Assembly: GCA_963706595.1 (NCBI GenBank)
Contig: OY970166.1
Coordinates: 3,680,001 to 3,744,000 of the forward strand
Reading direction: 5' to 3'
Origin: an uncultured cyanobacterium
Lineage (GTDB): Bacteria > Cyanobacteriota > Cyanobacteriia > Cyanobacteriales > Nostocaceae
Length of the DNA stretch: 64,000 nucleotides
Shown here: one piece after another, positions 5,200-46,362 of the stretch
Layout: each line of letters opens with the position of its first letter
Numbering within the stretch: position 1 is the first letter of the stretch
Notes under the pieces: generated by a model
Databases searched by the model: none
The model's input: only the letters and a program-made list of their open reading frames with translations
Told to the model about the DNA's origin: nothing
Made by a program: the position numbers and the translations under genes

Positions 5200-6567
5200 T
5201 CACTGCACCCACACGGTTTTAAGATTGACAAATTCATGTATACCTTGAATACTCAATTCTCTGCCGTATCCAGAACGCTTGATGCCACCAAAGGGTAAGC
5301 GGGGGTCGGATTTAACCATGCTGTTGATAAATACAGCACCTGCTTCGATTTCGGCAATCAGGCGATCGCGTTCTTGGTCGTTAGTTGTCCAAGCACTTGC
5401 ACCCAAGCCAAAAGGTGTAGCATTAGCTAATTGAATCGCGGCGTTAATATCTGGTACACGGAATAATAATGCCACTGGACCAAAGAATTCTTCCTGTGCG
5501 ATCGCACTATCTAGAGGAATATCTGTAATAATCGTCGGCGGGTAAAAGTTGCCGGGACGATCTGCGAAAGGATGTCCACCAGTGAGGACTTTACCGCCAC
5601 TTTTAACGGCTGTTTGTACTTGTTGATGTAAATCTTGGAGAAGATCAGGGGTTGCTAGTCGGCCTAAATCAGTATCTGGTTGCATGGGATCGCCAACTTT
5701 CAGCGCCTGAAATTTATCTAAAAGTAGCTTTTCAAATTCAGGTGCGATCGCCTCTGCAATAATAAACCGTTTCGCTGCTATACATGATTGCCCATTATTC
5801 AACATCCTGGCGGAAGTAGCTGTAGCAACTGCGGTCTCTAAATCAGCGCTTTCTAAAACAATAAACGGGTCACTACCTCCCAATTCCAAAACAGTTTTTT
5901 TAATTTGTTTCCCAGCAACAGAGGCGAGGGATGCACCCGCGGGTTCGCTTCCAGTTAAGGTAGCAGCTTTTACCCGGTCATCAGCCATGATATCGGCAAC
6001 TTTAGCCGCACCGATTAATAGTGTTTGAAAAGCGCCTTCAGGAAAACCAGCCCGGTGAATAATATCTGCAATTGCCAAAGCGCACTGCGGCACATTAGAA
6101 GCGTGTTTAAGTAAGCCGACGTTGCCCGCCATCAGCGTTGGTGCGGCAAAACGAAAGACTTGCCAGAAGGGGAAATTCCACGGCATTACAGCCAAAATTA
6201 CGCCCATAGGATGATAGCGCACAAAGCTTTGGCTGGCATCGGTTTTGATTGTCACATCAGCGAGAAAACTCGGTGCGTGTTCGGCGTAATAGTTACAAAC
6301 CAGGGCGCATTTTTCGACTTCTGCGACCGCGGCTTTATAGGTCTTGCCCATTTCCAGGGTCATGATTTTAGCAAAATCGGCTTTTTCTTGCTGTAAAATT
6401 ATTGCAGCTTTTTCTAGCCATTGCGATCGCGCAGAAAAACTCGTCTTACGGTACTGTTCAAAAGTCTGACCAGCCAAATCCAGTTTAGAGGCAATCTCTG
6501 CATCCTTGAGTGGCTCAAAGATTTTGATCGTCTCCCCAGTGGCGGGATTAATGGTGGCGATAGCCAT
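5200..6567 (-). CDS. gabD: NAD(P)-dependent succinate-semialdehyde dehydrogenase
   Basis: PWNFP, LELGGSDP, NNGQSC, EEFFGP motifs; start set at MAIATINP behind a GGAGG RBS. Confidence 0.92.
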   Translation of the reverse strand: MAIATINPATGETIKIFEPLKDAEIASKLDLAGQTFEQYRKTSFSARSQWLEKAAIILQQEKADFAKIMTLEMGKTYKAAVAEVEKCALVCNYYAEHAPSFLADVTIKTDASQSFVRYHPMGVILAVMPWNFPFWQVFRFAAPTLMAGNVGLLKHASNVPQCALAIADIIHRAGFPEGAFQTLLIGAAKVADIMADDRVKAATLTGSEPAGASLASVAGKQIKKTVLELGGSDPFIVLESADLETAVATATSARMLNNGQSCIAAKRFIIAEAIAPEFEKLLLDKFQALKVGDPMQPDTDLGRLATPDLLQDLHQQVQTAVKSGGKVLTGGHPFADRPGNFYPPTIITDIPLDSAIAQEEFFGPVALLFRVPDINAAIQLANATPFGLGASAWTTNDQERDRLIAEIEAGAVFINSMVKSDPRLPFGGIKRSGYGRELSIQGIHEFVNLKTVWVQ

Positions 6568-7381
6568 TGCCTGACCTCCCGTTAAAATAGCTTGAGGTAG
6601 CTTCCTAGTGTTACACAGATTAATTGCGGAAGCTATACCCAAATTTTAGTCTTTTGCTGAAGTTAAATATTTTTTTACTTAAAAACTGCAATTATTTTTA
6701 TATTTAAATATACTTGGTTTCTCAGTAAATTTTACGTAATTCAATACATTAAAAAACGGCATCTTGGTCTCTCTGGCTTCTCTGGAAAAGGGATAAAACC
6801 TAAAACGCTGTCTTTTCAATAAATCATCATTGATTAATCCCTTAGCACTGGTGAGAGGAGAAACTGTTTTGTCAGAAAAAATTAATAATAACTACTTTAG
6901 GACTCACCCACAAAACCCCTCAAACTCTTATTCCTCAGTGTACTGTGTGCCTCTGTGGTATGCGCTACGCAAACGCTTTAGCGATACGTTTTTTCTAAAT
7001 ATTTCTGGGGCGCAGGTGATTACGCCCTTGAGAATTAAAATATTGAACTTCACCCCCAGCCCCTCTCCTTGGTGAGAAGAGGGGAAACTTTGAGGAGTTA
7101 AATAATCTTAGCGGAACGTAAACCAAACAGTAGACCTACGGCTACGCCCATGAAAATTGCCAAAAAGGCGATATAAGCTATGACTCCAAACATTTCTCTT
7201 TCTCCACAATACTTAACTAATCTATTGAATCACGGGGAATGGGCAATGGGGAATGGGGCTTTGAGCATGGGAGTAGAAAAATATTGCTTCATCTCCCTGA
7301 TTTTTCCCATATTCTTCATCACCCGTAACTCCCCACATTGCGATAGAATACAGCCCACGGGCGCTTATTTGGGTTTAGGCA

Positions 7382-8473
7382 ATGACTTCTGTAATTAATG
7401 TAAATCTACCGCAGCAGTCTTATGAGATTGCGATCGCACCTTCAAGCTTAGACCAATTGGGTCAAAAAATGGCTAGTTTGAATCTAGGCAAAAAGGTTTT
7501 AGTTGTTTCTAATCCCAGTATTTTTAAGCATTACAGCGAAGCAGCGATAGAATCTCTGATATCGGCTGGTTTTGAAGTAGCTAGTTACAACCTCCCACCA
7601 GGGGAACGCTACAAAACCCTCAACTCTATTCAAAAACTCTACGATATTGCTTTAGAAAACCGCCTAGAACGTTCTTCTACAATGGTGGCCTTGGGGGGAG
7701 GCGTAATTGGTGATATGACAGGCTTTGCTGCCGCCACTTGGCTACGAGGCATTAATGTCGTGCAAGTACCTACCACTCTGTTAGCAATGGTAGATTCGGC
7801 AATTGGTGGCAAAACTGGTGTCAATCATCCCCAGGGCAAAAATTTAATTGGGGCTTTTCATCAGCCACGTTTAGTATTAATTAGCCCAGAAACTCTGAAA
7901 ACTCTGCCTATGCGTGAATTCCGCGCCGGAATGGCAGAGGTGATTAAATACGGTGTGATTTGGGATGCTGAATTATTTGCCGAGATGGAAGCAAGTAAAC
8001 ATCTCAATCAACTCCGCTATATAAAACCAGAATTTATAGAATACATATTAACCCGTTCTTGTCAAGCTAAAGCCGATGTCGTGGGGAAAGATGAAAAAGA
8101 AGGCGGACTACGGGCGATTCTCAATTATGGCCACACCATTGGTCACGCCGTAGAAAGCTTAACAGGTTATCGTTTACTCAAGCATGGGGAAGCCGTGGCT
8201 ATTGGCATGGTAGCAGCCGGACAGATTGCGGTGGAACTAGGAATGTGGCAACAGGAAGAAACAGAACGGCAAAATGACCTCATTCAAAAAGCGGGTTTAC
8301 CAACTCAGCTACCACAAGGTATAGATATTGAAGCAATTATTGATGCGTTGCAATTAGATAAGAAAGTCAAAGCAGGTAAAGTCAGGTTTGTTTTACCGAC
8401 ACAAATAGGTGCAGTGACAGTTACCGATGAAGTGCCAACTGAGACTATCCGGCGGGTATTACAGAAAATGTAA
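7382..8473 (+). CDS. aroB: 3-dehydroquinate synthase
   Basis: [26 protein letters not shown]. Confidence 0.97.
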
Positions 8474-34341: not shown

Positions 34342-35421
34342 ATGGCAAACGCACCGATAAAATTATTAATAGCTGCGAGTGGGACTGGTGGACATTTGTT
34401 TCCCGCGATCGCACTGGCTCAAAAGCTGCCAGACTATGAAATTGAATGGCTGGGTGTCCCCAATCGTTTAGAAACTCAACTGGTTCCCACGCAGTACCCT
34501 TTGAATACTATTGCAGTTGAAGGGTTTCAGCAAGGATTTGGATTGTCCACACTCCGGATCTTGGGTCAGCTGATGGCGGCGATTCTGGAAGTGCGGCGAA
34601 TCCTTAAACAAGGTAAGTTTCAAGGTGTTGTCACCACTGGGGGTTATATCGCCGGACCAAGCGTGATTGCGGCGCGTTCTCTGGGTTTACCTGTAGTTTT
34701 TCATGAATCTAACGCCTTACCTGGTAAAGTCACCCGATTTTTTGGTCCTTGGTGCAGTGTTGTAGCTTTAGGATTTGCCGAGGCTAGTCAGTATTTACCT
34801 CGGTCTAAAAATGTCTGTGTGGGGACTCCGGTACGTTCGCAATTTTTGGATGAAGGTCTGGAGACAACACTAGATTTACCCATTCCTGACGGTGTTCCTT
34901 TAATTGTAGTCTTTGGCGGCAGTCAGGGTGCGGTGGCGGTGAATCAATTAGTGCGCCAGTCAGCTGCGGCTTGGTTTGATGCGGGTGCTTATGTGGTACA
35001 TTTAACAGGCGATCGCGATCCCGAAGCCGAGAGCCTCAAACATTCACAATATATCGCATTACCCTTTTACGACAATATGGCCGCATTATTAAGACGAGCC
35101 AATTTAGCCATTAGTCGGGCTGGTGCTGGTAGTTTGACAGAATTAGGAGTATGTGGAACGCCAGCGATCTTAATTCCTTACCCCTTTGCTGCCGAAGACC
35201 ATCAAGCATACAATGCAGATGTATTTACTAAAGCTGGCGCAGCGTTAACTTTTAAACAATCTGAGTTAACAACCAAGATATTGCAAACTCAGATTTTAAA
35301 TTTATTACAATCACCAACAGAGTTAACCAAAATGGCAGAAAATGCCAAGGCGATCGCAATTCCTGATAGTGCCGAAAAGTTAGCTTCTTTAGTCCGTGAG
35401 ATAGTTGAAATTTTTCAATAA
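34342..35421 (+). CDS. murG: Undecaprenyl-PP-MurNAc-pentapeptide GlcNAc transferase
   Basis: SGTGGHLFP, HESNALPG, GGSQGA, SRAGAG. Confidence 0.96.
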   Translation: MANAPIKLLIAASGTGGHLFPAIALAQKLPDYEIEWLGVPNRLETQLVPTQYPLNTIAVEGFQQGFGLSTLRILGQLMAAILEVRRILKQGKFQGVVTTGGYIAGPSVIAARSLGLPVVFHESNALPGKVTRFFGPWCSVVALGFAEASQYLPRSKNVCVGTPVRSQFLDEGLETTLDLPIPDGVPLIVVFGGSQGAVAVNQLVRQSAAAWFDAGAYVVHLTGDRDPEAESLKHSQYIALPFYDNMAALLRRANLAISRAGAGSLTELGVCGTPAILIPYPFAAEDHQAYNADVFTKAGAALTFKQSELTTKILQTQILNLLQSPTELTKMAENAKAIAIPDSAEKLASLVREIVEIFQ

Positions 35422-36179
35422 TTAAAAACTACTCGACCACCAGAACGCCAATCGCAATGAATAAAGCCTCTATGCATTCCTCTTCCCAATCCAGTACAAT
35501 CAGAGGCGCGACAAATTTCCATTAGCCGTCCAAAGTTGCGATCTAATGGGTAAATATCAATTGCTAATCCTTGGATATGTTGAGAACGGATCGCACCTTT
35601 GATTTTGCGATTAACTGCGGGTGTGCGATAACCAGAAGTTACACCAATACTACTGCCATATTTATCCCGAATTTTGCCAAAACCTTGCGCTGTTTTCACA
35701 ATATTATCGATAATCCTTTTTGACTCTGGCGCTCTTTCAGGATCACAACCTTTGGTCATTTCTCCCCAAGTCAAAGGAATACCAGGAACAATCAATTCAT
35801 GTTGATAAACTGTCACACCAGTTACAAGCTTCATAGTGCGACCACTTTTAGTCCCCAGAGTTATTGTAGGTAAAGGTGTTAGTTGCTGGGTTTGTTCTTC
35901 AAGTACCTGATGATTTTCTGCAATTTCCAGCAATGCAGCCGCAGTGCTTGGTCCTAACAACTCCGGAGAATTTAGCCAAACACTTTCTTTGAATTCTGCA
36001 AATGCTTTTTCGGTTAAATTACCCACAATGCCATCAACTTTACCTGTATAAAATTCTTTTTTACTCAGCAAAGTTTGAATTTCTTTAACAGTCGCAACAT
36101 CAGCTTCATTGAGTTTAACTGTAGTATTAGAACTCTGAATCGTTTCTAAATTAATAAATTCCTCGACAACATTTGTCAT
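35415..36179 (-). CDS. Peptidoglycan-binding domain plus peptidase M15 (Zn D-Ala-D-Ala type)
   Basis: DGIVGNLT PG-binding motif; TSGYRT, SQHIQGLAID, FIHCD. Confidence 0.85.
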   Translation of the reverse strand: MTNVVEEFINLETIQSSNTTVKLNEADVATVKEIQTLLSKKEFYTGKVDGIVGNLTEKAFAEFKESVWLNSPELLGPSTAAALLEIAENHQVLEEQTQQLTPLPTITLGTKSGRTMKLVTGVTVYQHELIVPGIPLTWGEMTKGCDPERAPESKRIIDNIVKTAQGFGKIRDKYGSSIGVTSGYRTPAVNRKIKGAIRSQHIQGLAIDIYPLDRNFGRLMEICRASDCTGLGRGMHRGFIHCDWRSGGRVVFNY

Positions 36180-36766
36180 ATATATCTCTCCTTAAATTAG
36201 GTGGTGAATGACTCAGGAAGACGCTATTGCAATACGTCCGGACAAAAGCTAATTAAATAAGCTTCTCATTGATTATCAATGATCTGTTTATTTAAGACCA
36301 CTTGTACTAGCCAGCACAAATTCAATTACCATAAATGAACCCCTATGATTTGTTTTTCTGCTTTCAATGAAATTATCCTTCAAGAAAATCAGAAATTCTA
36401 ATTAAGAATTCGATAGGCAAAACCAATAACCAAAAACAGGAAACAAAGAATATGTACCTGTATTAAATAGATTTTTTACCAGAATTAAATATAATTTATG
36501 TTCTCACATTTATTTCGTGTTTTGAGTGATATAACATTCATTTTAATAATTTAACATAACTGTGTAATTAATATACATAATAATTAAATTATAAGTAATA
36601 GGTAAAAATAAATTTTAATAAAATTTATCATCTGCGATATTTAGTATAAAGATATACGAAGTATTCTTAAGTTTGGCAGCCCCTCTTCAGACACTCCTTT
36701 ATCTGTGCCTGATTGTATTGTACAATTTAGAACCAGTAAATCTTCCGAATTTGCGACACACCATTC

Positions 36767-37255
36767 ATGCTGAGGGTTAGCCTTATGACAAAATTAATCT
36801 GGTTTCCGGTTGTGGCTTCTGCTGTAATCATAGGATATGCAGATCAATTAGCCATTAGCCGAAAACCCAAAAACTATATGCAGATGTCGCTAAACTCTTC
36901 AGAAACAGTTGCGGAGTTAGACAAGCCTACGCCGATCAAATTTTCTCCAGCTACGAGCAAAATTGATCAAAAAGCAGCCTTTGACTTAGTTTGGCAACTA
37001 CCATTAGTACAACGCAAAGCACGAGAAATTCAATACCTCTCTAAGGGGACGATAAAGGTTGCAGCAATTGTTTATGATTATCCTACGCCAAATGACCCCT
37101 ACTACAAAGTTAGAGTATTTGACGGTGAACCAAAACACGATACAACAATTTATTGGTTCCGTGTCTTGAATACAGGAGATGTGATTGAAGTCCTAGATGT
37201 TATAGACAACAAATATATCTCCTTGGAAAAATGGCGGGAACAATTAAAACCCTAG
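36767..37255 (+). CDS. Hypothetical exported protein
   Basis: N-terminal hydrophobic segment, 162-aa ORF. Confidence 0.6.
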   Translation: MLRVSLMTKLIWFPVVASAVIIGYADQLAISRKPKNYMQMSLNSSETVAELDKPTPIKFSPATSKIDQKAAFDLVWQLPLVQRKAREIQYLSKGTIKVAAIVYDYPTPNDPYYKVRVFDGEPKHDTTIYWFRVLNTGDVIEVLDVIDNKYISLEKWREQLKP

Positions 37256-37313
37256 CAAGAATTAATTGTGCCATTCCGGGCTACAGTTGGGATAGTTTTG
37301 AATCAGTAAATCC

Positions 37314-37559
37314 ATGTCTGAACACAAACCTCTAAGTCCTTGGCACTACAAACCTTGGTGGTGTCAGCCCTGGTCTATCATGCTTACAGGCACAACACTG
37401 ATTAGCGGTAGTTGGTTAGTATTTAAAATTCTTTGGCTAACGGTTCTTGTTTCCATCCCTGTCTTCACATGGATGGGATTTTTTATCTTAATTTGGCCAC
37501 AACTAATGATTCGCAATGGTGGTTTGGAGTCACATCAAAGTCAGGGTAAGCTCATGTAA
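37314..37559 (+). CDS. Small membrane protein (DUF6737-like)
   Basis: W.YKPWWCQPWSI.LTG signature and two TM helices. Confidence 0.8.
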   Translation: MSEHKPLSPWHYKPWWCQPWSIMLTGTTLISGSWLVFKILWLTVLVSIPVFTWMGFFILIWPQLMIRNGGLESHQSQGKLM

Positions 37560-37585
37560 GCTGGCGCTCTCCCGCCAAGCCTAAC

Positions 37586-38310
37586 GTGTACACACAAGTC
37601 TAAAAACCTTTATTTGGGTAGGGTGTGTTATGGACGTTAGTCCTAACGCACCGAAAATTTAGCTTAAACAGCAAGAAGCCTCTCACTTAACACGATAGCG
37701 GAAGTGATGAGATGAATTGCGCGTGAATTGACGACAGTCTCCCGACCAATGCGACAGCGAGGAAGGGAGACACGGAGGAAACGAGCAAAATATTTTAAAT
37801 TTGGTATAATCGATTTGGTTGACTTCACCCATATTGGTGTCTGATAAGCCTCTGTCCAATAGCATTACGATTATTGGTAAGCGACTCCGTTGCACAGCAT
37901 AGAAGCAAGTAGGCACATCTTGATTAATACAGATCACCTCCGGGTTTGTCCTATAGCGCGAATAAGCCAGCATTTCATCCAGGACAGTAAAATTTGTAGG
38001 GTACAAGGTAAGAAATTGCATAGTCTGCGGAGGGGCTTCTCGTGGACTTAAAACAAAGCTCAGTCAATGTCTTCATAGAAGAGTCGCTGAGAAGCCTACA
38101 CTGTATGCTTGCATCAGTGTAGGAGTATGTCACGATGCAATACCTTTCGGTTAAGGGATGTAGAGACGTTCCATGGAACGTCTCTACAAGGGTTTTCGGC
38201 TCACGAATTTGCTTAACCAAACAGTATTGATTTAGGATGGTGCGTTGCGCTACGCGACAACACACCCTACAAAAAAAGATTTGGAGTAATTTAATGATTT
38301 GTGTGTACAC
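37586..38310. mobile_element. Outer MITE enclosing REP hairpins and an IS605 remnant
   Basis: TIR GTGTACACACAAGTC / GATTTGTGTGTACAC (14 of 15 match). Confidence 0.7.
37672..38133 (+). mobile_element. Non-autonomous IS200/IS605-family derivative without transposase ORF
   Basis: Left end CAAGAAGCCTCTCACTT...AAGTGATGAGATGAATTG; right end AGAAGCCTACACTG...CAGTGTAGGAGTATGTCAC. Confidence 0.7.
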
Positions 38311-38649
38311 CGTCGCCTGCCACGCTGAAGCTATGACGGGAGATTTTTGTATAAAAGTCTGAACCTATCTCTAAGCTCCAACGGTGAACTAGTAGCACAA
38401 ATTTGTCTCCATGCACATCGTATCAGTTTTTTGACTAGACTCAATATAAATACAGATGCTAAAAGGCATAACATATTGTGTTACACAGATAAATTGTCCG
38501 CCAGTCTGAGGGTTAAACTATATTGATAGAGCCTGCTGCGGATAAACCCAGAAAAAGGCTTAATTTTTATGATTTTATTTGGCAACTCTGGTTTTTACTC
38601 GTAAAATCGAAGACAAAGTAAAAAGCAATAGCATAAATACTCTAAATTA

Positions 38650-39582
38650 ATGAGTCAGTTAATAAGTCAGGGTGCGAGAGTTTTCACTAATTCTCAAATG
38701 GTAGATCGGATAAATGATATCGCTTGGCAGGCTCACCAAGGTAGTGTAGCCGCCATTATTCAACTATTGAACGAAAAACTAGCTCATTCGGGGGTGAGAA
38801 CCAGGGCTATTTTTGTCGCTGGTGTTTTACAACTTTTGTGTGAGGCGGCTAGAGAAGAACAACTTGACCAATCTACTCTAGTAGAACAAATTCAGCAAAT
38901 CCTGAATTCCATTACACCCCGTAATATTCGTAGAGTTAATATCAACAGTCGAATTGTTCGGGAACAGCAACTACTTTGGCTGACAGAAATTCACCGCAAC
39001 CATCAATTACTCTGGTCACAGGAAATTACATTAACTCAGCCCCATATCTTCCAACAGCTAGTCGCAGATTTAAAAGAAGCTCGAACTCAAGTAAAAATAA
39101 ATTTACCTAAGACCAAATTTTCTCGCTCTTCGGTGATTACGAAAAAGGCATCCAAGAAACGGCTACTAGCAGCCACTGGGTTATGTTCACTGTTATTGCT
39201 GGCTTGGGTTGTTTATGCCCAGTTGGGTGATAAATTGACAAATTTCGGACAAATAAATAGGACTAACTCTTTAGTTACAGCAAATGGTGATCAGACTCAA
39301 GCGGTATCTTTACCCCTTGCTGCTAATTATGGTATTTCTGCTCCTGTTGAAGAACCATTTTCAGACGCGGTGCGAATTGCTAACCAAGCTTCTGCTGCTG
39401 GTAAAATGGCCGTAACACCAACAGAGTGGTTAGAATTAGCTGCTCAGTGGCAACGAGCTTCAGATTTAATGGGTATGGTACCACCGAACCACAACCGCTA
39501 TCAGGAAGCAAAAATTCGGACTCGGTTGTACCAAAAATATAGTGAGGTGGCACAAGAAGAAGCTCGGAGAAGTTCAATATAA
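38650..39582 (+). CDS. Conserved membrane-anchored hypothetical protein
   Basis: AHQGSVAAIIQ.LN N-terminus, one TM helix, helical C-terminal domain. Confidence 0.75.
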   Translation: MSQLISQGARVFTNSQMVDRINDIAWQAHQGSVAAIIQLLNEKLAHSGVRTRAIFVAGVLQLLCEAAREEQLDQSTLVEQIQQILNSITPRNIRRVNINSRIVREQQLLWLTEIHRNHQLLWSQEITLTQPHIFQQLVADLKEARTQVKINLPKTKFSRSSVITKKASKKRLLAATGLCSLLLLAWVVYAQLGDKLTNFGQINRTNSLVTANGDQTQAVSLPLAANYGISAPVEEPFSDAVRIANQASAAGKMAVTPTEWLELAAQWQRASDLMGMVPPNHNRYQEAKIRTRLYQKYSEVAQEEARRSSI

Positions 39583-39634
39583 TTTTGACGGGGACATCAA
39601 AAGCTAGATATCCCCACAGATAAAAATATTCAGA

Positions 39635-40609
39635 TTAACTGCTCATCTCCAGCATCCGTTGCATTGGTTGCAGCGCCGCTAGGCGGATATCTTCTGACAT
39701 GGTGATTTCAGGAGTGCGATTTTTCATGGCTAAATATAGTTTTTCCAACGTGTTTAATCGCATAAATGGACACTCGTTACAATTACAGTTATTTAATGGT
39801 GGGGCAGGAATAAAGTGTTTGTCAGGAGCCAGTTTTTGCATTTGGTGAATGATGCCTGGCTCTGTAGCTATGATGAATTCTTTTGTAGGGCTGTTTTGAC
39901 AATATTTGAGTAAGGCGGCTGTTGACCCGATAAAACTGGCATGGCGTAATACACTACTTTCACATTCTGGGTGAGCGATCGCCTCTGCTTGGGGGTGTGT
40001 AATTTTTAACTGCACAATTTTCTTTTCAGAAAAGGTTTCATGAACAATACAGCTACCTTGCCATAGCAACAAATCTCGTCCAGTTTGTTCCATGACATAC
40101 CTTCCCAAGTTCCGATCTGGGGCAAAAATAATCGGCTGTGTGGGTGGGATTTGTTGGACAATCTTGACAGCGTTGGAACTGGTGCAGATAATGTCGCTCA
40201 TGGCTTTAATCTGGGCCGAGCAGTTGATGTATGAAATTACCAGATGATCTGGATGCGCGGCTTTAAAAGCTGCAAACGCTTCTGGTGGACAACTGTCGGC
40301 TAAAGAACAACCAGCATCTAAATCTGGTAAAAGCACCAATTTATCAGGATTCAAAATCTTGGCTGTCTCTGCCATGAAGTGAACACCAGCAAAGACAATT
40401 ACATCTGCATTGGTCTGGGCTGCGGCTTTGGCCAGTTGTAATGAATCCCCAATAAAGTCGGCGATATCTTGAATATCCGGTTCTTGATAGTAATGCGCCA
40501 AAATTACTGCGTTGAGTTCTTTTTTGAGAGTCTCAATGGCAGTAAATAAATCTAGCGGTAGTCCACCCGGTGGGGTGAGGTTTTGTTGAGGTAGTGCAGT
40601 GGTAAACAC
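39635..40609 (-). CDS. nadA: Quinolinate synthase
   Basis: [28 protein letters not shown]; start reset to GTG at 40609. Confidence 0.96.
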
Positions 40610-40758: not shown

Positions 40759-41691
40759 ATGACCAGTCAAAAAACGAAATCAATAACCCTGAAAATTGCT
40801 GTGGTTGGAGATGTTCACGACCAATGGGAATTAGAAGATGGCATGGCACTCAAGCATCTGGGTGTGGACTTAGTGCTGTTTGTGGGCGATTTTGGCAATG
40901 AATCGGTGGATGTGGTCAGAGCGATCGCCTCCCTGGACATTCCCAAAGCAGCAGTAATGGGAAACCACGATGCCTGGTACACCGCCACGGAATGGGGACG
41001 CAGGAAATGTCCTTATGACCGTTCTAAGTCAGATTGGGTACAGGAACAACTCGATTTATTGGGATCTAGCCATGTCGGTTACAGTAAGCTGGATTTTCCC
41101 GCGTGGAATTTAACTGTGGTGGGGGGTCGTCCCTTTACCTGGGGCGGTCCAGAGTGGAAATTTGCGGACATCGTGCGAGAACGGTATGGTGTGACGAGTT
41201 TGGAAGAATCCGCCGACCTGATTGTTAAAGCCGTAAACAGCGCTGCTCATGAAACGATTATTTTTCTCGGTCACAATGGCCCTAGTGGTTTAGGCGATCG
41301 CCCCGAAGATCCCTGCGGTAAGGACTGGCATCCCATCGGTGGTGACTTTGGCGACCCCGACTTTGGGGCGGCAATTTCTCAGGCTCTCACGGCTGGTAAA
41401 ACCATTCCTCTGGTGACATTTGGTCACATGCACCGCACCCTCAGACATACCAAAAAAGTGCAGCGCCAAGCTGTATTTAAAAGTCCAGAGGGAACAATTT
41501 ACTTGAATGCGGCAACTGTACCCAGAATTTTGGAAAATCAGGGTGAGAAACTGCGTAGTTTTTCCATTGTTTCTCTAGACGCGGGTGCGGTTTCCCAAGT
41601 CTCCCAAGTTTGGATAGGCAATGATTTCCAGGTGACTTTAGAGGAAATTTTGTATGAGCGATCGCGTAGTGTGCCGGAGGCTTTCGCTTAG
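40759..41691 (+). CDS. devT: Metallophosphoesterase of TIGR04168 type, DevT-like
   Basis: GDVHD, GDFGNE, GNHD, GHMH motifs; divergent from nadA as recalled for Anabaena devT. Confidence 0.75.
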   Translation: MTSQKTKSITLKIAVVGDVHDQWELEDGMALKHLGVDLVLFVGDFGNESVDVVRAIASLDIPKAAVMGNHDAWYTATEWGRRKCPYDRSKSDWVQEQLDLLGSSHVGYSKLDFPAWNLTVVGGRPFTWGGPEWKFADIVRERYGVTSLEESADLIVKAVNSAAHETIIFLGHNGPSGLGDRPEDPCGKDWHPIGGDFGDPDFGAAISQALTAGKTIPLVTFGHMHRTLRHTKKVQRQAVFKSPEGTIYLNAATVPRILENQGEKLRSFSIVSLDAGAVSQVSQVWIGNDFQVTLEEILYERSRSVPEAFA

Positions 41692-41831
41692 TGCGTCCTA
41701 GATATTTGCCTTCTGTAGTGCAATCTGCGTAGATGATGAGATATAGTATGATCTGTCAGCTTGTTAATTTTCGACAAAGGCGCTATACTGCTGTATTGTC
41801 GTAGGTTAACGAAAAGCTCGACAGTTTTATT

Positions 41832-41916
41832 GGAGAGGTGGCAGAGTGGTCGATTGCGTCCGACTTGAAATCGGATGAGGCTAAAACCTCCGGGAGTTCG
41901 AATCTCCCCCTCTCCG
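41832..41916 (+). tRNA. trnS: tRNA-Ser(TGA)
   Basis: GGAGAGG/CCTCTCC acceptor stem, TCCGA-cTTGAaa-TCGGA anticodon arm, long variable arm, GTTCGAATC. Confidence 0.97.
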
Positions 41917-42255
41917 TTGAATAAATTATCTATCGTATCAGTTTTCTAGAATCAATTTAAAATTGTTAAGTAAAAAAAAACTGCTAGTAGATTGCTTGTA
42001 TTATTTTAGAGAGTGATTTTGCGAATATAGAGTGACTATAGTTTCTTCATTAAATTTGAGTTTATATTTAAATTGCAAAACAAAAATCACAAAGTAAAGC
42101 ATTTAAGGAATTATCTTATTAGTTATTAAATTCTTTCAAGGTAGTTTAAAGTTAAAACTACAACACTAATTTTATGGCGGGAAGTTCTTTGAGAATTTAC
42201 GTGGGCATTTAGTCTACTTAAAATCTAAATATATTAGTGAATCTGTAGTTACGAA

Positions 42256-44847
42256 CTATGTAGATTTAGAAGGGAAGTTAGCACCTTTTTTTCTATTTGC
42301 ATCTGCGTGAGTTGCCTGAATATTATCAATTGTATCAGAACCACCAATTGCGAGTGGTTTGATGTGATCGTAATGCAAATCATCGCTATAGTATATTTCT
42401 GCACCTGTCAAGGCACAGCGATTTTCCTGAATTTTAATCAATAACCTTTTTTCTTCCTCTGTCAAACGAAGTCTTCTATCCTCTCTTTTGAAATCACTTT
42501 TAATAACTTCTAGTCTTTCCTCAAAGCCTTTGATAATTATTTCAAAATCAGCATTAATAGGATTTTTCATGTATACAAAAATCTCTTTTAATCTCTTCTT
42601 TATTTCCTGTCTATGAAACTTAGCCATTTGGTAATTTAAATCAGCTAAGATATGCCAAAGCATATAAAAATCCTGAAACCTTCTTACAAGAACTGGTAAA
42701 TTCCTACCAGCATCAAAGATAGAATTTAACTCCTCCCTTAAGAAATCATTAACATCACCATCCTCAATATCTTTATCAAGAAGAATTAATCGTAAGTTTT
42801 TGATAAAGCTTTCTACATATTTAATACTGTCTCGAAATGAACGCAAAGAATCGACATCTGTAGATGCTTGATGAAGTAGTTTTGTCACATCCCTTTTATC
42901 TTTAATTCTCGCATTTACGGAATTATTTTTTATATGTATATTAAGTACACCAGTCGATTTACCTTTACCACTTATCTTATGGTAGAACAAGTAAACTAAT
43001 AATGTGTATAATTCTTCATTTTGCATCCTATCACCATAATCATTTTTATTGCGGGCGACAGTGATGTAGAACCAGTTTTTATGTTTTTCAGCATTCTTTT
43101 TAATATCATCAATTAATTCCTTCTTAACCCAAGCATTCCACATCTCAAATGAATTCTCTAGGATTGGGAATGGTTTATTGTTGAGTCTAATAAATAAATC
43201 GACAGGTAAAAACTGAGTATTGATTCTCTCTTCAATTTCAACTACTAGCAGCGGAAAATCATAAATTTTATCTTGTAGGTTTATATCAAAACTATCAAAT
43301 TTGCTTTTTTCTAAATCTCTAAGTATTCTTAACTGTCTTAAGGCAAATTTATCATTCTTTGATTTCTGTTCGTTACCTTCTTCATCAATATAAGTTCCCC
43401 CAGTAAATGCAAGAATTGAAAGTAGTCTTTGTTGTCCATCAATCACTTCCCATACACCATCATTACGACTAAAGATAAATATTGGTGGTAGTTGAATACC
43501 AAGTAAAATACTCTCGATTAAGGCAGATGCTTTGGGAATACTAATAACTTCAGACCTCTGATAAGGTGGGCGTAAAAGTAGTCTTTTTTTTCTAATTCTT
43601 GATAAAAAATCATCAATAGTTACTCTTTGAGGATCTGGCTTGGTTGTTCTTAACGTTTCCAATTGGCTTACCTTTACTAAGGTATCATCTTGACTAGAAA
43701 CATTAATTTTGGGTTTACCACCACCTAAATAGTTATTGAAATTAGTATTTAGTTTTTCACTGAAGAAATTCGCTATAGTTTGATACCTTTCCAGGGTAGG
43801 AGCATAAAAATGTGAGCCTTCTTGAGCGAAAATAGCTATATTTTTTGCTATGTAACTTGAAAATTCAATAGATAAAGATACATTTTCAAAATTGCATCTG
43901 GGAACATTTTCTTTTTCTAACACTGAAAATGCCCATAAAAGACATTCACAAACTAGTCTATTAGACCTTATTGCCCTTGAGTATAAAGTTGAGTTTACTT
44001 TATCAACTAACTCAAATCTCTTGATTAGTTTATTGCATAATTCTTGAGGATCAGAATTTGAAACTATTAATTCATAGAGCTTATCAATAGTTTCAGTTCT
44101 TGATTGGCTAGATGCATAACTTCTAATCGGAAGCATACTAAGGATTAACTGTTTACGCACAAAAGTTAAAATTTTCTGAATTTTAAATTTAATATTATCT
44201 TCTGTTTTAGTATGTTTTAAAAAAAGTTGATATGTTTTTTCAGCTAGCTGTGAGTCATTAGTTAGTAAATCCTTAAAACACTTACTTACAGGATCATTTA
44301 GATATGCAGCATTATCAATCTCAGCCTTCTTCAAAGGTGTAATTCCAGAATTATACCTTGAAAATATTTCTTTCTTAATCTTATCTTCTAAATCACTATC
44401 CAGTTTAGGTTCATTTACTACTGCAAATTCAAATACTCTAAGCTTAGAATCAAGAAAGAGATCTTGAATTTGATTACTCAAATCTTGAAATGATTTTTTC
44501 CTTAGTTCTTTTAACTCATACAAACCTTTTTCAGTGAGCTTTAAGTCTTTTTTTAGAAGACGCAAAATCGTCTCAAATCTCTGTCTGCCATCAATTACTT
44601 CTTTTGTATTTCCGCTATCGAACAGTATTATTGGTGGTATTTCTGTTCCAAGCAATATACTTTCTATAAAAAACGTTGCTTTCTCAGGAGTCCAGACATA
44701 ATTTCTCTGGTAGTAGGGATCATATTTAATTTTATTTAAATTTCTTTCTCTGAACAAACTCTCTATACTTTGTGAGTATGTACTAATTTTTAGATGAGAT
44801 GAAAAAATTCTTTCAAAATCATCTTGCTTCAAAAATATGTCATCCAT
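42256..44847 (-). CDS. Tandem DUF262 (GmrS/ParB-like) protein with C-terminal HNH nuclease
   Basis: Two sets of YQR / ESILLG..P / EVIDG.QR / F.R.N motifs; YDHIKPLAIGGSDTIDNIQATHADANRKKG. Confidence 0.85.
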   Translation of the reverse strand: MDDIFLKQDDFERIFSSHLKISTYSQSIESLFRERNLNKIKYDPYYQRNYVWTPEKATFFIESILLGTEIPPIILFDSGNTKEVIDGRQRFETILRLLKKDLKLTEKGLYELKELRKKSFQDLSNQIQDLFLDSKLRVFEFAVVNEPKLDSDLEDKIKKEIFSRYNSGITPLKKAEIDNAAYLNDPVSKCFKDLLTNDSQLAEKTYQLFLKHTKTEDNIKFKIQKILTFVRKQLILSMLPIRSYASSQSRTETIDKLYELIVSNSDPQELCNKLIKRFELVDKVNSTLYSRAIRSNRLVCECLLWAFSVLEKENVPRCNFENVSLSIEFSSYIAKNIAIFAQEGSHFYAPTLERYQTIANFFSEKLNTNFNNYLGGGKPKINVSSQDDTLVKVSQLETLRTTKPDPQRVTIDDFLSRIRKKRLLLRPPYQRSEVISIPKASALIESILLGIQLPPIFIFSRNDGVWEVIDGQQRLLSILAFTGGTYIDEEGNEQKSKNDKFALRQLRILRDLEKSKFDSFDINLQDKIYDFPLLVVEIEERINTQFLPVDLFIRLNNKPFPILENSFEMWNAWVKKELIDDIKKNAEKHKNWFYITVARNKNDYGDRMQNEELYTLLVYLFYHKISGKGKSTGVLNIHIKNNSVNARIKDKRDVTKLLHQASTDVDSLRSFRDSIKYVESFIKNLRLILLDKDIEDGDVNDFLREELNSIFDAGRNLPVLVRRFQDFYMLWHILADLNYQMAKFHRQEIKKRLKEIFVYMKNPINADFEIIIKGFEERLEVIKSDFKREDRRLRLTEEEKRLLIKIQENRCALTGAEIYYSDDLHYDHIKPLAIGGSDTIDNIQATHADANRKKGANFPSKST

Positions 44848-45459
44848 AAATTCTAGTAATTACCTCGTCAAAACTTTTTCAATTCAACATAAAGAGCCAA
44901 TTTTACTCTTTATTGATATCTTGGATAAAACTTGCTCGATTTAAAAATTATCATGCTGTAGATTAACGTAAACAGTTTGTTTCAGGCTTTTGTGAATCAT
45001 CATTTGATTAAGCGGCACACACTAAAAAATAGTTAAAAAAGCATATTGAATGCCTGAGAATCATACTTGACGTTGGTAGTTTCTATCAATGCGTAAGTGA
45101 TATTGTAATATTAATATTTGCATAATATCTAAGATAGTGTATCATTCTTTAATTAAAAAGTACGACAAATAGTAAGATTTCTTAGTTATATCTAGAAGCT
45201 AGAAGCGATTTCTCCTTAATTTTTACTTGCAGAACGCCGTAAAGACAAAAACATAGACAAAAGGTGAAAAAACGTCCCAAAAGTTCTATAGGAAAGCCGT
45301 CTTCGTCGTGAGAACCTTCGGACTAATGTAGAACTGCCTGATAGTAAGGCATCCAGTGGAGGCTACAAATGTCAAAAAAAATAATGTTTCACGCCAAGAC
45401 GCATTCGCAGGAGGCGTTCCCGCCGGATAGGCGCAAAGAATTGGCGTGAAACTGTGCTT

Positions 45460-46362
45460 TTATTCAGCAGGTTTGTTACTAGCTCGATTAGCACGCGCCT
45501 CGGCTGAAGCCATGACTTCATCGAAATTCTCTAGTATTTCACCAGGGAAGTTTTCCAAAACCCTGGTAGAAATAGCCACACGGCCTTTACCTTCATCTAA
45601 GTCAATAATTACAGCTTTAATTGTTTGACCAATTTGAAAGACTTTTTCCAGAGATTCAATGTATTTTTGGCTGACTTGTTTAATATGTAGTAAGGCACTC
45701 AGACCCTCTAAATCTACAAATACTCCAAAAGGTTTAATTCCAGTAACTTTACCTTCTACAAGCTGATTGAGTGCTAATAAACTGAAGCTGCTAGAACGAG
45801 TTGCCAATCGCTGGGAAAGTATCAGTTTGTTGGTATTACGATTAATTTCTAAAAACGCTACAGTCAAATTTTGACCTTTAAGTGCTTCTAAGTTATCACG
45901 CTCTGCTAAATGCGATCGCGGAATAAATCCTCGCAAAGACAGCAAATCAACAGTCACACCACCTTTATTCACACCCGTTACCCTGACTTGCACCGTCTGG
46001 CCACCTTCGTTCATTTGGACCAGTCGTTCCCAGATTTGCTGAATTTCCAACTGCTTGCGCGAAAGGGTGACTTGACCTTCTGCATCCTGATCTCGGATGA
46101 TTACAAACTCCAGTTCCTCTTGCAATGGCAGCACCTCCGATAAATCGGTAACAGCTCTCAAAGAAGCCTCATCACGGGGGAGAAAAGCGGATGACTTGCC
46201 ACCAATATCTACATAAGCTCCATTGGGGTCAAGTTGAAATACTTTCCCACGTACAACTTGTCCCTTTTGAAACTGGTAGTCGTGTACTTCTAGTGCTTTG
46301 GCAAAATCGTCCATCGTAAAAGACGAATTGGCAGATTGAGAAAGTTTCGATTCGGAGTTCAT
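45460..46362 (-). CDS. S1 RNA-binding domain protein (Rps1b-like)
   Basis: Three S1 repeats: GAYVDIGGKS, RGFIPRSH, FGVFVDL. Confidence 0.9.
   Translation of the reverse strand: MNSESKLSQSANSSFTMDDFAKALEVHDYQFQKGQVVRGKVFQLDPNGAYVDIGGKSSAFLPRDEASLRAVTDLSEVLPLQEELEFVIIRDQDAEGQVTLSRKQLEIQQIWERLVQMNEGGQTVQVRVTGVNKGGVTVDLLSLRGFIPRSHLAERDNLEALKGQNLTVAFLEINRNTNKLILSQRLATRSSSFSLLALNQLVEGKVTGIKPFGVFVDLEGLSALLHIKQVSQKYIESLEKVFQIGQTIKAVIIDLDEGKGRVAISTRVLENFPGEILENFDEVMASAEARANRASNKPAE

Follow-up and report, generated by a model that had tools for sequence, protein, structure and literature searches.

Several of the phage defence systems described to date are built on DUF262 domains. According to the accessible parts of the corresponding reports, BrxU forms an interlocked dimer, cycling with nucleoside triphosphate (NTP), and needs the motifs DGQQR (Q101/R102) and DH (D474/H475) for cleavage (PMC8565348), while in SspE the hydrolysis of guanosine triphosphate (GTP) drives an asymmetric switch that licenses the HNH nuclease (PMC13251355). 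TgvAB and GrwAB are GmrSD-like type IV restriction systems from Vibrio cholerae, encoded by two genes each; both block phages with modified DNA and depend on a pair of DUF262 NTPase motifs (DGQQR) and one His-Me nuclease (PMC11411939, PMC11014532, PMC12137116). In Menshen, NsnA acts as a sensor for swappable effectors; the accessible text gives 33 families of N-terminal additions to NsnA, with a second DUF262 not among them, and reports DUF262 systems beyond those that it names itself (PMC12065111). EcoSlfn7, a DUF262-Schlafen fusion, is a proven phage defence gene (PMC13056530). Here we analyse a window of 64,000 nucleotides (nt) from an uncultured cyanobacterium of the Nostocaceae (contig OY970166.1, positions 3,680,001 to 3,744,000), in which a gene next to tRNA-Ser(TGA) encodes a protein of 863 amino acids (aa) with two DUF262 domains and a C-terminal HNH domain. 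This stand-alone, mobile gene is very likely a defence gene, likely directed against phages, and gives access to a modular family. This reading is favoured by the invariant DUF262 and HNH residues, the BrxU/SspE-like fold of repeat 2, the patchy distribution, the exchange of genes in the slot, the complementarity of effectors and a natural split form (locus L132).

An earlier note on this DNA, made from the letters alone, had proposed two real DUF262 domains, and both were recovered: Pfam GmrSD_N (DUF262) matches two stretches of the protein (E 4.9e-33), and the two profiles align to each other with 99.5% probability. The note had also quoted two complete sets of motifs, all of which are present; however, the second set is non-canonical, with the Trp of QRxxxW missing. 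The asymmetry of the two sites (DGRQR versus DGQQR), pointed out in the same note, extends to the whole family as a fixed feature, in which repeat 1 carries QRxxxW and DG[RK]QR, and repeat 2 carries QRxE and DGQQR. DGQQR is found in repeat 2 of 141/141 cores, and QRxE replaces QRxxxW there, with E433 present in 118/118 HNH-type homologues and 137/141 cores, while W52 of the QRxxxW motif in repeat 1 is kept in 141/141. Repeat 1 shows DGRQR in 66, DGKQR in three and a decayed motif in eight of 77 near-full-length representatives (50% identity), whose collection relied on a profile, not on the motif. These eight (P0246, P0247, P0250, P0251, P0252, P0255, P0266 and P0269) are the most distant clade, and their repeat 2 is intact. 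As DGxQR is the consensus for the DUF262 NTP motif in the available part of PMC12065111, DGRQR alone is no mark of an inactive site.

The compact terminal HNH that had been predicted corresponds to a Pfam HNH match (PF01844) at residues 810-856 (E 7.6e-7), and DUF1524/GmrSD_C (PF07510) has no Pfam match in the protein at E<=0.1. Residues D827, H828, N842 and N851 are invariant in 118/118 HNH-type homologues (the aligned set is made up of the query plus 117 of 120 listed homologues, three shorter ones being omitted). These residues match the D-H..N..N set given as HNH/GmrD site residues in the accessible portion of PMC4619093, which indicates that the catalytic residues of the HNH are intact. 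An AlphaFold2 model built from 118 sequences (predicted local distance difference test, pLDDT, 83.1; predicted template modelling score, pTM, 0.76) places in order a DUF262, a helical domain, a short flexible linker (380-386), the second DUF262, another helical domain and the HNH, which in fold most resembles the HNH domains of Cas9 (Z 8.1, root-mean-square deviation (rmsd) 2.2, 70 aligned). Helical domain 1 is likely a DNA-binding domain of the ParBDB/GmrSD-M type, judging from the part of PMC12065111 that was available and from homologues that match the NsnA profile.

The twin DUF262 core is modular, and the HNH is only one among several outputs that can replace each other. The family search matched 1,825 proteins among 8,000 scored candidates, and genome loci were taken for the best 80 of 255 confirmed relatives. 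These 80 comprise 46 intact HNH-bearing loci, 23 scored as HNH-less and 11 that are broken, cut or partial; two of the 23 (L019 and L053) are frameshifted HNH copies and were taken out, leaving 21. A gene on the same strand lies within 40 nt upstream of the core in 18/21 HNH-less loci (20/21 within 80 nt) versus 3/46 HNH-bearing ones, the counts being drawn among kin, hence not independent, and some contigs ending near the gene. All three exceptions come from related Planococcus-type genomes. In three such genomes (L037, L063 and L077; ~6070-7990), a Schlafen group 3 helicase gene precedes the HNH-bearing gene at 12-30 nt. Across the 46 intact loci, no conserved neighbour or methylase was found beside the HNH-bearing copies, in agreement with the earlier proposal that the protein has no cognate methylase.

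As for the HNH-less cores, 14/21 are located behind a putAbiC gene, at a spacing of -35 to 12 nt, and Pfam putAbiC matched the 11/11 members run from a cluster of 15. The model of this partner (pLDDT 79) has hydrophobic helices at the N terminus and an extended coil, and a fold search with it yielded generic helix matches only (best Z 7.5). In another four of the 21, a Schlafen/AlbA_2 gene precedes the core at -4 to 18 nt, and the putAbiC and Schlafen partners have no domain in common. Two more follow a gene for a 470-540-aa protein which is methyltransferase-like by its Atlas look-alikes, a lead, and the remaining core precedes Septu PtuA/PtuB at 149 nt. Genes for the methyltransferase-like protein are found directly upstream of HNH-less cores at L090:6293-7921, L087:60-1475, L129:4436-5956 and L128:2470-3988, and the protein has no match in Pfam, PADLOC or NCBIfam. 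At L073:6979-12740, the HNH-less core is flanked by a divergent trypsin-like protease and the PtuA/PtuB pair.

Further outputs were found outside this set. In 23 metagenome and viral loci examined, the partner is putAbiC in three (one of them next to a gene for phage replication) and methyltransferase-like in two, and PIN_8 partner genes occur at L115 and L117, and also at L088. The core is fused to a TaqI_C-like specificity domain in 12/77 representatives, a domain that Pfam detects clearly in P0218 only and weakly in L112; in the 3/3 loci with context, an ABC ATPase gene follows the fusion. At these loci (L112:5989-10991, L113:595-5465 and L116:3010-7886), the two genes overlap and the ATPase's C-terminal domain has no Pfam match; its tail motifs are ones that we take to be HEPN-like. 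Fusions of HNH and Schlafen are found in P0130 and L123, and three N-terminal zinc fingers in P0128, while the C-terminal extension of L121 is an apparent assembly chimera and was excluded as an effector.

In a core tree of 141 sequences, outputs track clades. A minimum of 13 changes in HNH presence is needed on it (shuffled mean 41.7), and two separate clades have the methyltransferase-like partner; as the tree was rooted at its midpoint, the order of events cannot be read from it. L132 is a natural two-gene form, in which a 418-aa DGRQR protein is followed, after one base, by a QRxE/DGQQR protein. The second protein clusters with repeat 2 (support 0.996), but the first does not cluster with repeat 1; a second, different 418-aa sequence stops at the same place as the first gene of L132. 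Stand-alone repeat-2 proteins were also considered as split genes, but the candidates begin variously in the linker and are fragment-like, and only L132 was counted. In a 154-column tree whose deep nodes are weak, repeats 1 and 2 fall into separate clades that are not sisters. This speaks against a simple recent duplication, while the fusion of two lineages and an old duplication are indistinguishable there.

The horizontal acquisition of the gene, standing alone in a variable tRNA slot, is supported by its distribution and context. The full gene occurs in 1/11 genomes of the genus. In the other ten, the slot after tRNA-Ser(TGA) is empty in two, holds NACHT in two, TPR in two (one of them at a contig end) and a KAP-like block in one, and lies in a different context in three. 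Congener homology ends at ~41918-41930 and restarts at 45279-45431. The AT-rich turn that had been noticed after the tRNA is real, with a guanine-plus-cytosine (GC) content of 29.9% across 41918-45200 versus 41.3% genome-wide, and GC is as low in just 0.05% of 11,133 equal-sized genome windows. The claim of a single gene also held, as only one open reading frame (ORF) of at least 70 aa lies between the tRNA and the S1-domain gene (45460-46362). The absence of HIP1 (GCGATCGC) from ~3.3 kb stood as an observation, the gap in the window spanning 41658-45912, but is a weak sign of foreign origin: a longer gap (35350-39975) exists elsewhere in the window, and HIP1 is missing from 1,209/11,133 (10.9%) of 3.3-kb genome windows. 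No integrase, tRNA-end duplication or att repeat was seen at the islet (Table 1).

Table 1. Features of the tRNA-Ser slot and of the 863-aa protein (positions in the window)
Feature	Positions	Strand	Basis
tRNA-Ser(TGA), left edge of the variable slot	41831..41917	+	ARAGORN
AT-rich variable islet, replaced or missing in congeners	41918..45280	.	GC, homology breaks
Gene for the 863-aa tandem DUF262-HNH protein	42256..44847	-	ORF, Pfam, structure model
DUF262 repeat 1, ~residues 15-182: PxYQRxYVW, DGRQR, FxRYN	44302..44805	-	Pfam, motif alignment
Helical domain 1, ~residues 183-376	43720..44301	-	All-helical in model
DUF262 repeat 2, ~residues 400-574: RPxYQRxE, DGQQR, FxRxN	43126..43650	-	Pfam, PADLOC, motif alignment
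Helical domain 2, ~residues 575-786	42490..43125	-	Model alignment to BrxU, SspE
Compact HNH nuclease domain, ~residues 790-858; D827, H828, N842, N851	42274..42480	-	Pfam HNH, Cas9 HNH fold

In the genus, the slot that tRNA-Ser(TGA) and the S1-domain gene enclose (41918-45430; L093-L102) is a small hotspot. Its occupants include NACHT-NCH2 proteins of 786 and 797 aa, TPR proteins and a PIN gene, and the KAP-like block of three genes includes two without Pfam matches (679 and 151 aa). The neighbours of the islet are, by Pfam, a metallophosphoesterase gene and the S1 protein gene. Promoter and terminator scans were not above chance (13 promoter-like sites versus 16.3 expected), and a search of sequencing runs gave two entries with a share of 0.05 and no sign of expression. 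A 24-nt inverted repeat lies within 45374-45464, just beyond the end of the S1-domain gene and at the restart of congener homology, and is possibly the terminator of that gene.

Within the order, the second helical region was matched in 12/401 genomes (3%), and in 8/11 of those other than the host it lies in frames of >860 aa. Three Nostoc/Anabaena genomes (L013-L015) carry the gene at 86-94% identity adjoining the same tRNA, the L013 copy with an internal deletion. The cyanobacterial focus of the earlier note proved too narrow, since the 80 genome loci come from cyanobacteria, Bacteroidota, Bacillota, Pseudomonadota, others and one methanogen (archaeon). Carriage is mainly chromosomal within the collections searched: phage collections gave no match, plasmid collections one partial match, and the full core is found in 1/9 viral-contig loci. 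Viral clusters appear among the Atlas look-alikes of the 863-aa protein. At L020, a frameshifted homologue has an array of 11 tRNA genes (L020:3594-4914) ~3 kb upstream, and shorter relatives with a single DUF262 (370-450 aa) and a compact C-terminal HNH are encoded at L153, L159, L165, L167, L174, L189 and L191.

Regarding the mechanism, we lean slightly towards the 863-aa protein building an unequal DUF262 pair into one chain and cutting modified phage DNA. The pairing, the gating by an NTPase and the modified-DNA trigger are taken over from BrxU, SspE, TgvAB and GrwAB. Within the chain, the two units, each a DUF262 plus a helical domain, are predicted to form a pair, with the pTM of 0.76 as an indirect sign, and they may recognise phage DNA that is abnormal, most likely through chemical modification; NTP hydrolysis would license the HNH to cut the DNA so recognised. 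The fixed asymmetry likely splits the labour between repeat 2, which always retains DGQQR and bears the nuclease, and repeat 1, which retains the QRxxxW patch but in the most distant clade has a decayed NTP motif. Where relatives lack the HNH, this core would likely activate a separate toxic partner, and such systems would then be abortive.

Several observations count against this proposal. Residues 404-784 of the model align with BrxU 1-419 (Z 8.1, rmsd 10.7, 284 aligned) and residues 395-776 with SspE 1-525 (Z 7.3, rmsd 10.5, 302 aligned), but matches of Z 7-8 and rmsd >10 are middling by the scale of the tool. Foldseek gave no match for the model at E<=0.001, and helical domains 1 and 2 show no profile alignment (probability 4%). 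A search of PDB sequences, for which both the protein and the family profile served as queries, returned HNH-level matches only, and no DUF262 structure. The best PADLOC match is NsnA (188 bits over two stretches, E 7.4e-56), followed by PD-T4-2_A (65 bits, E 1e-18, DUF262 part only), while HEC-05/BrxU scores 24 bits and SspE 14-17 bits; modification sensing is thus borrowed from a distant branch, and the DUF262 units, likened to GmrSD in the earlier note, are closer to NsnA by PADLOC profile. The kinship behind the coupling counts and the choice of the best 80 of 255 relatives for the genome loci add to these points.

The main alternative, which we regard as rather unlikely, is abortive infection, in which the twin core would respond not to a base modification but to a protein of the phage, to some DNA structure or to shifting nucleotide pools, and the HNH would degrade both host and phage DNA. 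The coupling of the same core to membrane, tRNase-type and RNase-type partners, which are unable to cut the DNA sensed, is in keeping with it, and so are the closest profile, NsnA, described in the accessible text as a sensor for separate effectors (PMC12065111), and the compact HNH, which is Cas9/McrA-like and not DUF1524. However, all the characterised DUF262-nucleases compared respond to DNA modification, as far as the available parts of their reports describe (PMC10952713, PMC11411939, PMC12137116, PMC13251355), and the HNH-bearing copies have neither a conserved antitoxin nor a conserved partner next to them.

It is improbable that the protein serves a purpose other than defence, as a selfish or housekeeping DNA-processing protein. 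Many HNH-bearing loci do have ordinary neighbours, and the close Nostoc/Anabaena relatives keep the gene at the same tRNA site; nevertheless, a prevalence of 3% in the order, the frequent breakage (11/80 loci), the lack of transposase or att features and the exchange with known defence effectors all argue for a defence gene. An SspE-like self-sensing, in which host phosphorothioate (PT) marks would stimulate the NTPase and the HNH would nick unmarked DNA, is likewise improbable: both repeats retain PxYQ, the PT-sensing patch of SspE in the accessible portion of its report (P61/Y63/Q64; PMC13251355), and DndC is present in 11/11 other cyanobacterial carriers, but DndC is common anyway (311/401 genomes of the order), it is found in 0/6 non-cyanobacterial carriers, SspD not having been searched for, and no dnd/ssp genes recur among the neighbours. 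The dndC match of the host itself is split over two frames (G000:C1:4763199-4764535), possibly by a frameshift or an assembly error.

Beyond the cleavage of modified DNA by this one protein, we see an even chance that the twin-DUF262 NTPase, fused and asymmetric, serves as a general platform for sensing infection, as yet undescribed as a system, and that seven or more outputs have repeatedly been wired to it. In cis, these would be HNH and HNH plus Schlafen; in trans, the putAbiC membrane protein, Schlafen, PIN, the methyltransferase-like protein, Septu and the ABC ATPase together with a specificity domain of the restriction type. If so, DUF262 pairs would be signal transducers able to trigger abortive effectors, beyond switches for an attached DNase, and the family would provide a natural series in which one sensor is connected to a DNase, RNase-type, membrane or methyltransferase-like output. 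The protein would also offer a single-gene, single-chain model, with two separately mutable sites, for the need of TgvAB and GrwAB for two DUF262 domains, and the detection and signalling of NsnA-type sensors would become testable by swapping parts. In addition, several candidate defence systems without a dedicated PADLOC 2.0 model would be added, one of them in filamentous cyanobacteria.

The comparison with known systems places the 863-aa protein outside both GmrSD (no DUF1524) and Menshen (no NsnB/NsnC) by membership features. With GmrSD, BrxU and SspE it shares the DUF262, the helical middle domain and a C-terminal nuclease of HNH fold, and its repeat 2 matches structurally; the GmrSD motifs of DUF262 (QR, DGQQR and FxxxN) are present twice, and the C-terminal DUF1524 (GmrD) is absent. 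In contrast, those proteins have one DUF262 per chain and form homo-oligomers, whereas this one has two, no DUF1524 and only 14-24 PADLOC bits. With NsnA of Menshen it shares the DUF262 plus ParBDB unit and its best PADLOC match over two stretches, but NsnA has one such unit and needs NsnB and NsnC, while the protein of the window has two and a fused HNH; no gene for an NsnB ABC ATPase or an NsnC effector lies beside it, the islet holding no second ORF of at least 70 aa. EcoSlfn7 resembles the family in coupling DUF262 to a non-DNase effector, although it is a DUF262-Slfn fusion, while the twin cores have a separate upstream Schlafen gene (four loci) or Schlafen behind the HNH (P0130 and L123). 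For PD-T4-2 and Dazbog, there is no full-length match and no partner gene, and no Dazbog model of PADLOC matches at E<=0.1. No PADLOC or NCBIfam model spans the protein end to end, in support of the earlier reading. A full-text literature search, whose coverage of subscription papers is thin, found no description of a tandem or twin DUF262 system, and the accessible parts of PMC10853773 and PMC12284385 hold nothing on a tandem DUF262-HNH architecture.

The closest parallel is found in TgvAB and GrwAB, a likeness by description and not by sequence, as both they and this protein combine two DUF262 domains with one His-Me nuclease. They consist of two genes with DUF1524 in one subunit, while here there is a single chain with a compact Cas9-like HNH, asymmetric motifs unlike theirs and no type I restriction-modification operon around the gene. 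The 863-aa protein likely works as they do, within one chain. The logic of two DUF262 domains and one nuclease is already published as TgvAB and GrwAB, and the new part is its single-chain form together with the exchange of effectors.

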